The translations under genes were made by a program, and so were the position numbers. Shown one piece after another: positions 4,294-11,253 of a DNA stretch of 64,000 nucleotides. The stretch lies in assembly GCA_963820825.1 (NCBI GenBank), contig CAWGBN010000006.1, positions 64,001-128,000 of the forward strand. The letters run 5' to 3'. Each line of letters begins with the position of its first letter. Within the stretch, counting starts at the first letter, position 1. A model generated the notes under the pieces. That model was not told the origin of the DNA. It did no database searches and saw nothing but the letters and a program-made list of their open reading frames with translations. The DNA comes from Vulcanimicrobiota bacterium (GTDB lineage: Bacteria; Vulcanimicrobiota; Vulcanimicrobiia; Vulcanimicrobiales; Vulcanimicrobiaceae).

Positions 4294-4357
4294 ACTTGGT
4301 TGGTTACGCGCCGCAGGCCGGAGGCCTGCGGGGATGGCCGCCAGAAGGACGGCCCGG

Positions 4358-5068
4358 ATGCTGGCGCTCTCGCACGTTATCCTGCACGTGGGGTTTTGCG
4401 GTGCCATCGCTCGGATGCCGGCCGAAACAACCGTGGCACTGCGCGTTCACCTCGCCGACCGTTCCGGTCGCACGCAAGTCGATAAGGTCTTTCGCGTCGA
4501 GCGCGGCGACGAATCCGAAGCGATCGTCGAGTTCGACAGCGCCTTCGGCACCTACCGGCTCGACCTCGTCGCGCCGCGGTACCGCTGCTCGGCGACCGAT
4601 TACCTGTTTCTCATTTCGGGGCACGATCGGAGCGTGACGGAGAAGCTCGCCGATGCGTCGGCTCCCGCGCTGCCCGCGCCGGTACTGCTCTCCGGCACGG
4701 CTCCGCAGTCCTTTCTCTACGTCCAGCCGACGTTCGTACTCTTCGATAAGAGTCAGACCGCCTGCGATAAACCCGTGCCCCAGCCGCTGACGACGAACGT
4801 CAGCGTTGAGAACGATCAGGACGGATACTACATCTCGCTCTATCCCGATCGGTCGGCTGCGCCCGGCTCGCAGCAGCTCGCGCTGCGGCTGCGAACGCCG
4901 ACGCGACAGTACCACTACGTGCGCGTTCCGATCTCGTTTCCAATGGCACCGACGGGTTGGCCGACGAGCGTTACGCTCGACGTGACCGAGGATATGATCG
5001 ACGGACTCGCGGGCGATCCGGTCAACACTCTGCTCTGCCCGAAGATGTGGCGCACCTCGGCCGGATAG
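4358..5068 (+). CDS. Hypothetical protein (start 4334 or 4358)
   Basis: Long ORF with natural composition, divergent from korA; no recognised motif. Confidence 0.65.
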
Positions 5069-5107
5069 CCCTTCGACTCCGCCGCCGCGCGGCTCGCTCA
5101 GGATGAC
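5069..5107. repeat. REP-like element (reverse complement GTCATCCTGAGC-N-GTCGAAGGG)
   Basis: Matches the 2431-2464 motif; starts right after a stop codon. Confidence 0.6.
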
Positions 5108-5146
5108 AAAAAAAGGAAACAGGCGCACCTCAACGGTGCGCCTGTT
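5108..5146 (-). terminator. Rho-independent terminator of groESL
   Basis: 12-bp perfect stem AACAGGCGCACC/GGTGCGCCTGTT, 5-nt loop, followed on the minus strand by TCC and a T7 tract. Confidence 0.9.
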
Positions 5147-5172
5147 AGTCTCGACAGTCCGCGTTCGGACTA

Positions 5173-6848
<1,676 letters not shown>

Positions 6849-7200: not shown

Positions 7201-7227
7201 TTAGCACTCTTCGCGCTCGAGCGCTAG
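7201..7227. promoter_or_regulatory. CIRCE element 1 (HrcA operator)
   Basis: TTAGCACTC-N9-GAGCGCTAG against consensus TTAGCACTC-N9-GAGTGCTAA, upstream of groES. Confidence 0.92.
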
Positions 7228-7234
7228 CCGTGCC

Positions 7235-7264
7235 ATATTAGCAGAGTCTGCTCGCGAGTGCAAG
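7235..7264 (-). promoter_or_regulatory. CIRCE element 2 overlapping the sigmaA-type groESL promoter
   Basis: Plus strand TTAGCAGAG-N9-GAGTGCAAG (7238-7264); minus strand TTGCAC-17 nt-TAATAT. Confidence 0.85.
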
Positions 7265-7319: not shown

Positions 7320-7598
7320 TTAGAGAATGAGTCGGGCCGGCGAGACGAAGAGCAGGTAGGCCTGGGCCGCCGCCACCGCGGCAAAGAAGAGGACCACCCA
7401 GGGCGGCTTCACCCAACAGCGCCATTGCCGAACGCCCGCGGCGTAGGCCGCGCTGTAGAGCACCACGGCCGCGACCGAGAGCACGAGCACGGCGTACTTA
7501 CCGAAGAGGAGCGCGAGAAAGGCCGCCTTGCAGAACGTGAAGGCGTAGCCCTCGATCTCCTTACCGCGCTGGACTCTGGTCGAGTTCTCCACGAGCAA
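7320..7598 (-). CDS. Small membrane protein (92 aa, 2-3 TM)
   Basis: Hydrophobic ORF overlapping the 3' end of the radical SAM gene; AAAGGA upstream. Confidence 0.75.
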   Translation of the reverse strand: MLVENSTRVQRGKEIEGYAFTFCKAAFLALLFGKYAVLVLSVAAVVLYSAAYAAGVRQWRCWVKPPWVVLFFAAVAAAQAYLLFVSPARLIL

Positions 7599-9090
7599 CC
7601 ATTCCTTTCATGGCGCGCGTTCGCACTTTTGGGAAGAGGCGCGCCGCACAGAACGGCATGCGCACCGGATCGTTCCCCGCGCCGGCGACGTGCACGCAGC
7701 ATTGTTCGAGCCGTTCGGTAATGAGGGTATCGGCGTCCATGAAGTGCTTGATCGTCACGCGTTTGACCCGCTCGCCGACAAAGCGCGCCGTCGCATCCTT
7801 CGCAAACGCCATCCGGATGAGCTCGCCGATGCCCCCGAAGTCGCACGCGTCGCAGAGCGTGCGCAGGTGCTTCGCGAGCTCCGGGCGCGAGAGCGTCATC
7901 GTCTCCGACATGACGCTCATCAGGCCGTCGCGCACGCGCTCGAGCGTCTCGGTGAAGGCGATCTGGTTTGCGAAGACGCTCAAATGCTCGCGTAGCGCGG
8001 CTTCTCCGACGACCGACGCGAGCCCGACGAACCGCCCATGACGGCCGCGCAGGAAGTAGCCGATCGAGCAGCAGTCGGGATGGCTGCACGGTAGGGCGAT
8101 CAGATCGTGCGTACCGACGCCGTAGCGCGACTGCGCGGCGATGCGCGCGAGAACGCCGGTCGTCGTGATCCGCGACATCGGATCGACTCCCGGTGCGCGG
8201 CCCGAAGCAAAGATCGGCTGAAACATGACGCCGCCTACGTACGGCGTCTCGAATGCCGTGTCGAGCACCTCGCCGATCTGATCGGCGTTCTCTGGAACGA
8301 CGGTCATGACGAGCGTGGTAAAGACCCGCGCCCCACTCAGCCGCGCAACCGCGCGGGATTTTACCTCGCGCAGGTCGACCCCGCGCAGGGTTGCGTGCGT
8401 TGCCGCACGCTGCCCGTCGTACTGCAGATAGACCTCAACCCGCTCGCGCAGTCCGCGGAGAGAGTCGAGCAAGCCGTCTTCGTTTGCGAGACGCACGCCG
8501 TTGGTGTTGAGCAGAATGCGGGTGATGGGAAGCGCGCAGAGCCGATCGATCAGTTCGCGAATCTGCGGATGCACGGTCGGTTCGCCGCCCGAGAGCATGA
8601 CGACGTCGAGGCGCCCGGCTTCGCGTTCGATCGCCGTCTCGACCGCATGCACGGCCGATTCCAGTGGAAGATAGTGGCCGAGCGCCGGACTCGAGCTCGT
8701 GTAACATGCCGGACAGGTCAGATTGCACTGTGTCGTCAGATCGAGCAAGTAAATACACGAGTGCTGGAGGTGCCCCGGCCCGAGCCCGTGCTCGTAACCG
8801 GTCGGCACCGGATAGAGCTCGTTCGTATCGGGATTGATGATCTTGGTCGGAACCCGCCACTGCTGCAGGTAACGCCAGAGCGATGCGTCCTCTTCGTAGA
8901 GCGACCAAACCTCGCCGTGACCGCGCCGGCACCAACGCCGCAGGTAGACCGCGCCGTCCCGTTCGACGAGATGACCGTCGCAGAAATCGTCCGGATACTG
9001 CGGATCGAATCCGTCGTGCTCCGAAAAGCAGCGCGGGCAGACCGCACGCACGCTCTTGAGAACCGTGTAGTCGTAAACGCCGAGGGGCAT
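7561..9090 (-). CDS. Radical SAM protein of the MJ0619/tetraether synthase (Tes, GDGT-MAS)-like family
   Basis: N-terminal CPRC...CRRGHG, CNLTCPAC, SGGEPTVHP, NTNG, YLQYDG, C-terminal PCSHPDCC, RLEQCCVH, PFCA. Confidence 0.85.
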   Translation of the reverse strand: MPLGVYDYTVLKSVRAVCPRCFSEHDGFDPQYPDDFCDGHLVERDGAVYLRRWCRRGHGEVWSLYEEDASLWRYLQQWRVPTKIINPDTNELYPVPTGYEHGLGPGHLQHSCIYLLDLTTQCNLTCPACYTSSSPALGHYLPLESAVHAVETAIEREAGRLDVVMLSGGEPTVHPQIRELIDRLCALPITRILLNTNGVRLANEDGLLDSLRGLRERVEVYLQYDGQRAATHATLRGVDLREVKSRAVARLSGARVFTTLVMTVVPENADQIGEVLDTAFETPYVGGVMFQPIFASGRAPGVDPMSRITTTGVLARIAAQSRYGVGTHDLIALPCSHPDCCSIGYFLRGRHGRFVGLASVVGEAALREHLSVFANQIAFTETLERVRDGLMSVMSETMTLSRPELAKHLRTLCDACDFGGIGELIRMAFAKDATARFVGERVKRVTIKHFMDADTLITERLEQCCVHVAGAGNDPVRMPFCAARLFPKVRTRAMKGMVARGELDQSPAR

Positions 9091-9401
9091 CAGTGCATGT
9101 TTCCGAGGCCGCCGATGATGGCGTTGCAGAGCGCCGTGAGTCCCAAGAGTCCGGCCGCCGATCCGGTGACCAAGCCGCTCATGAAGTCGATCCGCCTTCG
9201 CGCGAGCGCAACGCCCCAGACTCCCAGTGCAAACCCGCCGACGTAGATGACGGCAAAGCCGTAGGCCGCGTTTGAAGTGAATCGCTCGCCGATCGTCGCC
9301 GCGAGGAGAACCGCGAGCGGCATTACGACGAAGCCGCCGACCGCGATTCCCACCATCAGCCCTACGAAGAACTGACCGTGGAGAGGTGTCTTCGCGGCCA
9401 C
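9090..9401 (-). CDS. Small membrane protein (~103 aa, 3 TM); start approximate
   Basis: VAAKTPLHGQFFVGLMVGIAVGGFVVMPLAVLLAA...LLGLTALCNAIIGGLGNMH; stop overlaps the radical SAM ATG (TGATG). Confidence 0.75.
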   Translation of the reverse strand: MAAKTPLHGQFFVGLMVGIAVGGFVVMPLAVLLAATIGERFTSNAAYGFAVIYVGGFALGVWGVALARRRIDFMSGLVTGSAAGLLGLTALCNAIIGGLGNMH

Positions 9402-10060
9402 AGTTGCGTCAGCTTGAATCCGAAGAAGAAGAGGCCCCCGATGCAGAGCACTTGTGCGAGCGTCAGGCCGAGCGGCGTCGCCGGCGCGACGCGAAAGAAC
9501 TCGACCGCGAAGCGATCGGCGCAAAAGAGCACTCCGCCGAAGTAGAAGAGGCCGTTCTCGGGGAGCACTCTTTTCGATTCGAGTGCCGCGAGCGCGGCAA
9601 AGGCGATCGCCGCCGCCGCCGCGAGATAGAGTTGCGCGGGATGGCGCCACGCGCCATGATCGTGCACCGCCCACGCGACGGAGGCGGCTCTGCCGTAACA
9701 GCAGCCGCCGATGAAACACCCGATTCGTCCGATCGCCTCGCCCGCCGGAATCGCGAGCGCGAAGAGATCGCCGGTGGGGCGCGCGATGCCCAAATGCCGC
9801 TTCATCGCGACGACCGCGAGCCACCCGCCGAGAATCCCGCCTTCGATCGTCTTCCCGGGGAGACCGGTTGCGAGCAGCTGCAGCAGGTTGGCACCGGCGA
9901 GCCCGCCGATCAGTCCCGCCGCCATGATCTGCGCCGCGACGTCCCCGGCCAATCCGCGGCGCCGCGCCATCTGCCAGAAGACGAACGCCGCGGTCGCATA
10001 TGCGGCAACGTACAGCGGCGCCGCAAGGAGCCAGCGTGCGTGCCCGTCGAGCGAATCCAT
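9362..10060 (-). CDS. Prolipoprotein diacylglyceryl transferase (Lgt)-like membrane protein, divergent subfamily
   Basis: GRIGCFIGGCCYG, RHPAQLY, RFAVEFFR, GLTLAQ; GKTIEGG in place of canonical SFHGG. Confidence 0.85.
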   Translation of the reverse strand: MDSLDGHARWLLAAPLYVAAYATAAFVFWQMARRRGLAGDVAAQIMAAGLIGGLAGANLLQLLATGLPGKTIEGGILGGWLAVVAMKRHLGIARPTGDLFALAIPAGEAIGRIGCFIGGCCYGRAASVAWAVHDHGAWRHPAQLYLAAAAAIAFAALAALESKRVLPENGLFYFGGVLFCADRFAVEFFRVAPATPLGLTLAQVLCIGGLFFFGFKLTQLWPRRHLSTVSSS

Positions 10061-10103: not shown

Positions 10104-11253
10104 ATGGGACTAGCCGTGCAGATTCTGCGCATCTCGCTGCGCGCGCTGCGTCATAACGCCGCGCTGCTGCGCGATCTCGTCGGCCCGCAACGCGCCGCCT
10201 TCGTCGTGAAGGGGAATGCGTACGGTCACGGATTGCTCCCGGTAGCGCGCGCGATCGAACCGTTTGCGACGCGTCTCTGCGTCTATACGATCGAAGAAGC
10301 GCTCGCGCTGCGAGCCGGCGGCATCGCGGCCGCACTGCTCGTGCTCGGGCCGATTCCGCCGGAGGCGCTCGACGACGCACTCGCGGCGAACGTTGAGGTC
10401 GTGCTCTGGAACGCCGGCGAGTTCGCGCGCCGGCTCGGCGCGAGCGCGCGCAAGCGCGAGACGAGCGCCGCGGTGCACGTCAAGGTCAACACCGATCTCA
10501 ATCGGCTCGGCTTCGAGCCGCATCAACTCGCCGATGCGCTCGACGCGCTCGCGCGCATGCCGGAGATCGAGATCGCCGGCGTCTTTTCGCATCTCGCCGC
10601 GGCCGAAGAACTCGACTCGCCGTATACGATGTTCCAGCTCGGCGCTTTCGAGCGCGCGCTGGCGCAGGCGAGACTCGTTCTCGAGCGGATCGGGCGAGCG
10701 CCGCTGCGCCACATCGCCGCGTCCGCCGCCGCCATGCTCTGGCCGCAGACGCGCCTCGACTTGGTTCGCTTCGGCATCGCGCTCTACGGTCTGATGCCCT
10801 CGCCGCAGACGCGCGAAGCGTTGGGATCCGCGGCGCCCGACCTGCGGCCCGCACTCTCGTACCGTTCGCAGCTCGTCGTAACGCGTACGATCGCGGCCGG
10901 AGCCTCGGTCGGGTACGGCCGCACCTTTCACGCACCGCGCGAGATGCGCATCGGCGTCGTTCCGGCCGGCTATGCCGACGGCGTGCCTCGCGCACTCTCC
11001 AATCGCGGCAGCGTTCATCGTCGACGGTGCGCTCTGCCCGATCGTCGGGCGCGTTGCGATGAACATGACCGAGATAGACCTCACCGGCGCGCCCCGCGCG
11101 CGCCCCGGTTCGGAGGTCACGCTCATCGGATGCGACGGCGACGCGGCGGTCCGCGCCGACGACTGGGCGGCGTGGACCGAGAGCATCAACTACGAAATCG
11201 TTGCGCGCTTGCCGGGCGAACTGCGGCGCGAATACGAAGAGGCGATCGGTTAG
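10104..11253 (+). CDS. alr: Alanine racemase, apparent frameshift at ~11010
   Basis: VVKGNAYGHG, VFSHLA, VGYG, GYADG; second frame GRVAMNM...INYEIV. Confidence 0.95.

Follow-up and report, generated by a model that had tools for sequence, protein, structure and literature searches.

To our knowledge, the lipidation of bacterial lipoproteins has Lgt as its single known entry point, and among enzymes joining unactivated lipid tails Tes alone is understood structurally. Here we analyzed a locus in which relatives of these two enzymes are encoded side by side, together with two small membrane proteins that we call smA and smB. The four genes occupy positions 7320–10060, on the minus strand, of a stretch of 64 000 nucleotides (nt) from the Vulcanimicrobiota bacterium assembly GCA_963820825.1 (contig CAWGBN010000006.1, positions 64 001–128 000; this whole stretch is hereafter called the window). 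The assembly comprises 2.98 Mb at 85% completeness, with the window on its contig 6, and the closest relatives of the genome are metagenome-assembled genomes (MAGs) named Candidatus Cybelea or Baltobacteraceae, of the phylum Eremiobacterota. In the parts of the literature covered here, Tes homologues of bacteria figure solely as candidate enzymes of branched glycerol dialkyl glycerol tetraether (brGDGT) synthesis, without partners (PMC8941075, PMC11868695, PMC13459092, PMC13274423). We found no published description of a pairing of Lgt-like and Tes-like proteins in a literature search that left aside the supplementary tables of the papers on Tes homologues, which possibly list members of the clade, and the cassette, a conserved module, has apparently not been described hitherto.

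A conserved and co-inherited gene cassette

An earlier prediction, made from the sequence of the window, had proposed four co-oriented and overlapping genes at this place, and this was borne out by analysis of open reading frames (ORFs) and domains. In the order of transcription, the first gene encodes the Lgt-fold paralog (9362–10060, minus strand), a protein of 232 amino acids (aa) with a PF01790 match, seven predicted transmembrane helices and a minimal head domain. It is followed by smA (9090–9401 with a GTG start placed by homology, the minimal ORF being 9090–9365, minus strand), encoding a protein with three transmembrane helices and an invariant Cys near its C-terminus, and by the gene for a radical S-adenosylmethionine (SAM) enzyme of the Tes/TrsS superfamily (7561–9090, minus strand; 509 aa, PF04055 match). 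The last gene is smB (7320–7592 with a GTG start placed by homology, or 7320–7598 as a TTG-initiated ORF, minus strand), the product of which is small, membrane-bound and endowed with two invariant Cys residues. Each gene overlaps the next, by 4 nt between the Lgt paralog and smA (40 nt with the homology-based start), by 1 nt between smA and the radical SAM gene, and by 32–38 nt between the latter and smB. Judging from homologous proteins, the GTG at 9401 is the more likely start of smA as compared with 9365, and the GTG at 7592 that of smB as compared with the TTG at 7598.

To evaluate conservation of the cassette, we used the radical SAM protein to find related loci. This search matched 598 stretches of DNA, 496 of which encoded relatives, and the best 80 loci were compared. 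The radical SAM identity was at least 65% in 37 of these and 44–48% in the remaining 43, the latter deriving from Actinomycetota, including Mycolicibacterium, Mycobacterium, Nocardia, Nonomuraea, Knoellia, Phycicoccus, Nostocoides, Microbacterium and Rothia as well as MAGs, with a gene order that varies within the cassette. Some loci of the first group carry the names Binatota, Acidobacteriota, Chloroflexota or Rhodospirillales, all of them on short contigs and possibly mis-binned. An Lgt-like match was found within 1.5 kb of the radical SAM gene at 73 of the 80 loci, with 72 on the same strand, 70 located upstream and 3 downstream, and five of the seven loci that had no such match are on contigs cut at that side.

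The two enzymes were also found to be distributed together. Among 301 Eremiobacterota genomes the radical SAM gene occurred in 32 (25 of the 234 of high quality, and 8 of the 58 of the same genus), and the Lgt paralog occurred in 30, all of these being among the 32 and none among the other 269. In 28 genomes both genes lie on one contig within about 1.2 kb. Two genomes, G114 and G222, have them on separate contigs. Among Actinomycetota, the cassette was present in 7 of 401 sampled genomes. The strict co-occurrence together with the small number of carrier genomes shows that the cassette is tightly co-inherited but accessory.

The pairing is in some cases also covalent. Two proteins, P0165 (671 aa) and P0166 (733 aa), contain LGT, Zn_ribbon_HMPTM and Radical_SAM domains in one chain, as does the fragment P0243 (393 aa). 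The Lgt domains of the fusions contain a GRxGC motif and share 36–40% identity with the paralog of the window versus 25–29% with the canonical Lgt of the same genome. As the Lgt-like domain is N-terminal and the radical SAM domain C-terminal in these fusions, the latter is placed on the membrane face of the C-terminus of Lgt. P0166 has two CX3CX2C motifs, and the partnership is therefore not confined to the single-motif branch of the radical SAM family described below. The fusions were found solely among distant representatives; close to the Lgt paralog of the window, the only candidate for a fused form was a 412-aa protein with PF01790 alone. A complex prediction with four chains, using alignments and the radical SAM enzyme as partner, gave a score of 0.00, which speaks neither way.

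One explanation would be that a housekeeping lgt happens to lie beside an unrelated radical SAM gene, and the commonness of Lgt as a housekeeping enzyme is the sole point in its favor. The window genome, however, has its canonical lgt elsewhere, on contig 8 (202.3 bits, with FHGGL and RIVNFINDELWG motifs), so that the paralog is not the housekeeping enzyme, and three actinobacterial cassette genomes likewise have a canonical lgt (216–229 bits) beside the copy in the cassette (107–124 bits). Taken with the strict co-occurrence, the adjacency in two phyla and the natural fusion proteins, this already refutes an explanation by chance, to which we assign a negligible probability. Recurrence of the unit, which had been put forward as a test of the proposal, was thus clear, and we consider it nearly certain that the four genes constitute a single functional unit with its site of action in or on the membrane.

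Altered relatives of Tes and Lgt

The radical SAM enzyme matched PF04055 at 66.9 bits and PF23545 (Zn_ribbon_HMPTM) at 25.4 bits, the latter slightly under the cut-off of 27. Its best curated match was the NCBIfam model NF045646 (TrsS), with 198.6 bits against a cut-off of 490, and NF045702 (Tes) gave 157.2 bits against a cut-off of 450, so that the enzyme is an equivalog of neither; the orthologue representatives P0121, P0123 and P0124 scored 147–192 bits with the Tes model. The best solved structure found by sequence was that of GDGT-MAS, the Tes enzyme of M. jannaschii (MJ0619; PDB 7TOL and 7TOM), with 108 bits and an E-value of 4.6e-30 to 7tol_A over residues 41–484. An AlphaFold2 model, built from a 36-sequence alignment (pLDDT 83, pTM 0.86, with low confidence for residues 370–430), is predicted to have the same fold over its whole length, with the C-terminal domain of the lipid pocket included, as Foldseek aligned it full length with 7tom (E 5e-32, TM-score 0.78, 530 alignment columns) at about 21% identity. 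The second Foldseek match, SkfB, covered the core only (TM-score 0.30).

All of the Cys motifs named in the original prediction were found, in the radical SAM enzyme as well as in smA and smB. Within the radical SAM alignment of 36 sequences, the N-terminal CxxC...CxxxH site of zinc-ribbon or rubredoxin-like type (C18, C21, C54 and H58) and the CX3CX2C radical SAM motif (C122, C126 and C129) are invariant, with the N-terminal His spaced as CX3H in the lineage of the window and as CX2H in Actinomycetota. Further towards the C-terminus, C335, H337 and C340 (PCSHPDCC), C464, C465 and H467 (QCCVH) and C481 (PFC) are invariant or nearly so across the two phyla, and C112 and C413xxC416, which the earlier motif list did not include, are likewise invariant.

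An N-terminal site of CxxC...CxxH type, the CX3CX2C motif and a C-terminal FMD...CCxH...FC stretch are found in both the cassette enzyme and GDGT-MAS (numbering of the latter according to PMC9433317). In contrast to Tes, however, where C73, C77 and C80 together with a His ligate an N-terminal auxiliary [4Fe-4S] cluster ([4Fe-4S]N), the positions aligned with these three Cys ligands are not Cys in either phylum, and the residue aligned with the labile Met439 is a Lys, although CCxH and FC are kept and the additional invariant motifs (C112, PCSHPxC and CxxC) are present. The cassette enzyme also differs from Tes in being bacterial, accessory and accompanied by an Lgt paralog and small Cys-containing proteins. 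As with Tes, its substrate is probably hydrophobic and modified by radical chemistry.

A search of 1.84 billion library representatives with the radical SAM enzyme gave 4932 matches at E ≤ 1e-3, of which 210 reached E ≤ 1e-30. The scores fall sharply, from about 390–510 bits for P0121, P0123, P0124 and fragments to roughly 220 bits. Only one of 40 full-length representatives, P0266, reached the TrsS cut-off, and none reached that of Tes. Two CX3CX2C motifs spaced 25 residues apart, as in Tes, were seen in 45 of 81 sequences, whereas the protein of the window, nine locus orthologues and P0121, P0123 and P0124 have a single motif. A quick maximum-likelihood tree of 80 rows, rooted at its midpoint only and leaving out representatives with lengths outside 420–600 aa as well as one that had no motif, placed the window clade (17 rows) on a long stem of 0.7 with a Shimodaira–Hasegawa-like branch support (SH-aLRT) of 100. 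This clade is nested in a group of 31 rows, most of which have a single motif, and is separate from a group of 49 rows that contains P0266 and the best Tes scorers. The assignment to Tes/MJ0619 made in the original prediction thus holds for the superfamily, by sequence and by full-length fold, but not for Tes proper, considering the low score and the separate clade, and the enzyme is a new subfamily of the Tes superfamily.

The match to TrsS bears on a different possible function, in which the four proteins would form a Cys-lined membrane complex for handling of metals, metalloids or thiol redox equivalents, with a radical SAM product that is organometallic or contains sulfur. TrsS is listed, as a table entry in PMC13188914, among selenoproteins of unknown function; no other mention of it was found in the literature, and the word is absent from the Haft preprint. 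Certain actinobacterial neighbors would also suit such a function, namely ArsR with a P-type ATPase (L049), CbtA/CbtB (L061), MerR (L048) and Rrf2 (L056). The flanking genes nevertheless differ between loci, and Pfam analysis of 51 proteins at 12 actinobacterial loci and of 33 proteins at 11 loci of the Eremiobacterota group found none that were conserved across lineages. TrsS and the cassette enzyme belong to the same superfamily, but the score is far below the cut-off, P0266, which passes it, contains a pair of CX3CX2C motifs and falls in the other main branch of the tree, and no metal-binding domain was found. Metal or redox handling therefore appears very unlikely.

A role in peptide or cofactor chemistry is another alternative, with the radical SAM enzyme installing a thioether or some other cross-link on the Cys residues of smA or smB and the Lgt paralog acting as scaffold. 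Such a role would fit the presence of an invariant Cys in every partner, the position of SkfB as the next-best match for the core in both structure and sequence, and the extra Cys motifs of the enzyme, potential ligands of a second auxiliary cluster like that of thioether-forming maturases. The NCBIfam matches to peptide maturases span only the radical SAM core, however, at 26–46 bits, and Pfam gave no match to a SPASM or RRE domain at E ≤ 0.1. The core-only match to SkfB also contrasts with the full-length match to GDGT-MAS, the supposed substrates are polytopic membrane proteins with no leader/core layout, and a pure scaffold would not need the invariant phosphate-binding residues of Lgt described below. 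We hence judge peptide modification to be unlikely.

The Lgt paralog scored 78.3 bits with PF01790 (LGT; cut-off 24.9), but fell below the cut-offs of both equivalog models (TIGR00544, 38 versus 118.9; NF000778, 46.5 versus 334). Its AlphaFold2 model (pLDDT 91.8) is predicted to have seven long helices and a short hairpin in place of the head domain of the E. coli enzyme, and E. coli Lgt (PDB 5AZB/5AZC) was, as 5azb, the sole Foldseek match at E ≤ 0.001 (TMq 0.75). The signature motif of the paralog reads GRIGCFIGGCCYG. In the HMMER alignment to 5azb, GRIGCFIGGCCYGR of the paralog pairs with the E. coli signature GRLGNFINGELWGR, and EGGIL pairs with HGGL, RHPAQLY with RHPSQLY and RFAVEFFR with RIIVEFFR (paralog given first).

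Among 38 sequences from both phyla, R112, C115, G123, R183 and R190 are invariant, corresponding in E. coli Lgt to R143, N146, G154, R239 and R246, and E187 (E. coli E243) is retained in at least 90%. In the E. coli enzyme, R143 and R239 are described as holding the lipid head group, while the H103A/N/Q/R/Y and E151A/Q variants are inactive (PMC4728403). The position of H103 is in the paralog occupied by Glu in the window and by Ser in the actinobacterial copies (RSILGGL), N146 is replaced by the invariant Cys, and the position of E151 is Cys in the lineage of the window. Judging from these alignments, the paralog has retained that half of the site which binds the lipid, whereas the other half is altered. 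What had been predicted as an Lgt-like enzyme thus has the fold and the phosphate-binding residues expected of it, but ordinary diacylglyceryl transfer is not assured with H103 and, in the lineage of the window, E151 replaced. The paralog, present as a second copy beside canonical lgt, is a new subfamily of Lgt. A second lgt homologue is also known from M. smegmatis (MSMEG_5408).

Small proteins with invariant cysteines and the chemistry of the cassette

Neither smA nor smB matched any Pfam or NCBIfam family. In 20 smA sequences from two phyla, G64 and G68 of a GxxxG motif and C80 (TALCN) are invariant, with the Cys located 11 residues from the C-terminus. Using hidden Markov models (HMMs) and crude filters, smA-type genes were found at no fewer than 66 of the 80 loci, sharing three transmembrane helices, the GxxxG motif and a Cys near the C-terminus. 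Across 64 such ORFs the last Cys is 5–16 residues (median 10) from the C-terminus and is preceded by an uncharged stretch (median 20 residues) and, ahead of that, by a basic stretch (median net charge +2), with positions −3 to −1 being mostly [A/T/V][G/A/S][L/F/I]. This layout resembles a lipoprotein signal peptide. From the positive-inside rule, the Cys would be expected at the outer face, which is the side to which the Lgt active site is reported to open (PMC4728403). The N-termini of smA-type proteins vary, being absent, a zinc ribbon or Pro-rich, and so does the position of the gene, which is flanked by the two enzyme genes, precedes the Lgt paralog or follows smB, and is sometimes present in two copies. 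Two smA-type genes per cassette were seen in L025, L037, L038, L053 and L074, with L037 and L038 having the zinc-ribbon type and the type of the window in tandem.

The two Cys residues of smB (FTFCK and RCW) are invariant or nearly so across the two phyla, the first located at the start of the first hydrophobic stretch and the second after a strongly basic loop, which is presumably cytoplasmic. An iterated HMM search started from the smB of the window linked smB-type proteins across Eremiobacterota and Actinomycetota at 52 of the 80 loci, but did not find any at 20 of the 43 actinobacterial loci, mostly those of Mycolicibacterium. The gene is single-copy in the genome of the window, and a protein atlas search gave only clusters named ‘hypothetical protein’. 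In a single case, L022, the place of smB after the radical SAM gene is taken by a gene (7493–8053, plus strand) for a protein of 186 aa that begins with a signal-like peptide terminating in AALC, which resembles TALC of the smA of the window, and a 97-aa protein with three transmembrane helices comes next. The original prediction had pointed to the Cys residues of the two small proteins as potential acceptors; these are indeed invariant, with that of smA ending a signal-peptide-like helix, and their invariance and placement would be compatible with an acceptor role.

The evidence as a whole inclines us towards lipid chemistry as the function of the cassette. The reading that we favor, with a probability of roughly 40%, is that the Lgt paralog lipidates the Cys of smA-type proteins and that the radical SAM enzyme subsequently remodels the lipid tails. 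At the outer leaflet, the central cavity of the paralog would take up a glycerophospholipid (probably phosphatidylglycerol), the diacylglyceryl part of which would be transferred to the invariant Cys or held there. A Cys-bearing helix end is the likely partner both here and for E. coli Lgt, but the presumed acceptors of the paralog differ in being small and polytopic, with a non-canonical motif and the Cys near the C-terminus. The Tes-like enzyme would dock at the cytoplasmic side and use 5′-deoxyadenosyl radical chemistry on an unactivated carbon of the lipid tail, forming a new C–C or C–S bond, probably with involvement of its C-terminal auxiliary cluster as in Tes. In GDGT-MAS, a sulfur of that cluster is described as the transient partner of the lipid radical (PMC9433317). 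smB may be a further subunit or a second acceptor, as one of its Cys residues is beside the strongly basic, putatively cytoplasmic loop.

Several observations weigh against this inferred scheme. Radical SAM enzymes must be cytoplasmic, and that places the Tes-like enzyme on the membrane face opposite to the active site of Lgt, at the outer leaflet. Of the two residues the replacement of which inactivates the E. coli enzyme, H103 is replaced in the paralog and E151 in the lineage of the window, and canonical transfer may therefore be lost. Tes-type chemistry is likewise not assured, because the [4Fe-4S]N ligands are absent and a Lys is found at the position of Met439. Furthermore, the residues ahead of the smA-type Cys misfit the canonical lipobox, and neither small protein was universal among the loci, by the crude detection used. 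Finally, two loci with full 6-kb flanks (L024 and L047) have a radical SAM orthologue of 70–74% identity with none of the Lgt paralog, smA or smB nearby.

Some of these features would agree better with remodeling of free lipids, in which the radical SAM enzyme couples or cross-links the tails of membrane glycerolipids to give macrocyclic, diabolic-acid-like or membrane-spanning products, the Lgt paralog binds or presents lipids with no transfer activity, and smA and smB are structural subunits of a platform. A protein that keeps the phosphate-binding Arg residues but has lost H103 (and E151 in the lineage of the window) looks like one that binds lipid without transferring it. The Tes fold over the full length and the common C-terminal cluster motif are as expected for tail coupling, and the fusion proteins would be compatible with an arrangement for handing over lipids. 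Bacterial Tes homologues have moreover been proposed, though not proven, to make membrane-spanning lipids (PMC8941075). Such remodeling would, on the other hand, leave unexplained why the small proteins have invariant Cys residues at the end of a signal-peptide-like helix, and why smA-type proteins have variable N-termini and tandem paralogs. We also know of no Lgt-like or small-protein partners with which archaeal Tes would work. The patchy and accessory distribution, which includes aerobic Actinomycetota and only a minority of genomes even within the genus of the window, argues against a core membrane-lipid role.

Sahonero-Canavesi et al. (2022) reportedly described Mss, a synthase of bacterial membrane-spanning lipids, from Thermotoga. 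Mss is a bacterial radical SAM enzyme thought to join lipid tails, similar to the cassette enzyme by description alone, and in the accessible parts of two papers it is named as a separate, confirmed coupling enzyme, with no mention of an Lgt partner (PMC13459092, PMC13274423). We consider free-lipid remodeling somewhat less probable than the lipidation scheme, of which it is the main rival, and any link to brGDGTs or to bacterial membrane-spanning lipids in general is speculative.

A variant of the lipidation scheme, which we consider rather unlikely, has the Lgt paralog lipidating the Cys of smA-type proteins as above, but with the Tes-like enzyme welding the tail ends to a second lipid or to a smB Cys, the product being a membrane-spanning lipid anchored on a protein in the former case and a tail-end thioether in the latter. 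Were this true, the two leaflets would be tied together through a protein, and the cassette would represent a third route to bacterial lipoproteins and the first bacterial Tes-type chemistry on a protein-bound lipid.

Genomic setting and significance

The cassette is followed by groES and groEL, and is preceded by an alanine racemase gene (alr) in divergent transcription. Upstream of groES, at 7201–7263 (minus strand) and thus after smB, we found a promoter-like TTGCAC-17 nt-TAATAT together with an inverted repeat, CTAGCGCTC-N9-GAGTGCTAA, that resembles CIRCE. With these two elements between smB and groES, the chaperonin genes form a unit of their own with their own heat-shock control, and membership of groES–groEL in the cassette was ruled out. 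The groEL gene (4304–6833, minus strand) is split over two frames, with pieces at 6159–6833 and 4304–6115 and a break near 6115–6190, and its normal stop is lost through another break near 5240. Since this is the sole Cpn60 match in the assembly, an assembly indel is likelier than a dead gene. The alanine racemase gene (approximately 10107–11253, plus strand) also shifts frame, near 11000, with its N-terminal part in an ORF from about 10107 and its C-terminal part in 10972–11253, which again hints at indel errors of the assembly. All genes of the cassette are themselves intact.

In L009, L015, L022 and L028 the cassette is placed as in the window, with hisA and the divergent alr upstream. A Cpn10 (groES) gene downstream of the cassette was confirmed in L009 and seen in L030, whereas a groES/groEL pair in L015, L022 and L028 would be deduced from ORF sizes alone. 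Other neighbors were found in L029, with a DDE transposase nearby, and in L036. An ICMT/PEMT-like methyltransferase adjoins the cassette in L056 (4399–4905, minus strand), a single case among the 12 actinobacterial loci, and an Rce1-like CAAX protease does so in L034 (3562–4911, plus strand), again a single case. These two recall the eukaryotic CaaX processing of lipidated Cys, but being isolated neighbors they lend no support to the idea of such processing here.

For the study of bacterial Tes relatives, these results carry a warning that not every bacterial ‘Tes homologue’ counts as a marker of a brGDGT producer. As the cassette is found in cultivable Actinomycetota, such as Knoellia, Nonomuraea, Nocardia and Mycolicibacterium, its function should be directly testable. 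The conserved and sometimes fused pairing of an altered Lgt with a relative of Tes, in company with small proteins that have invariant Cys residues, points to a membrane chemistry not previously described, by which either proteins would be lipidated in a new way or bacteria would make lipids of a new class.

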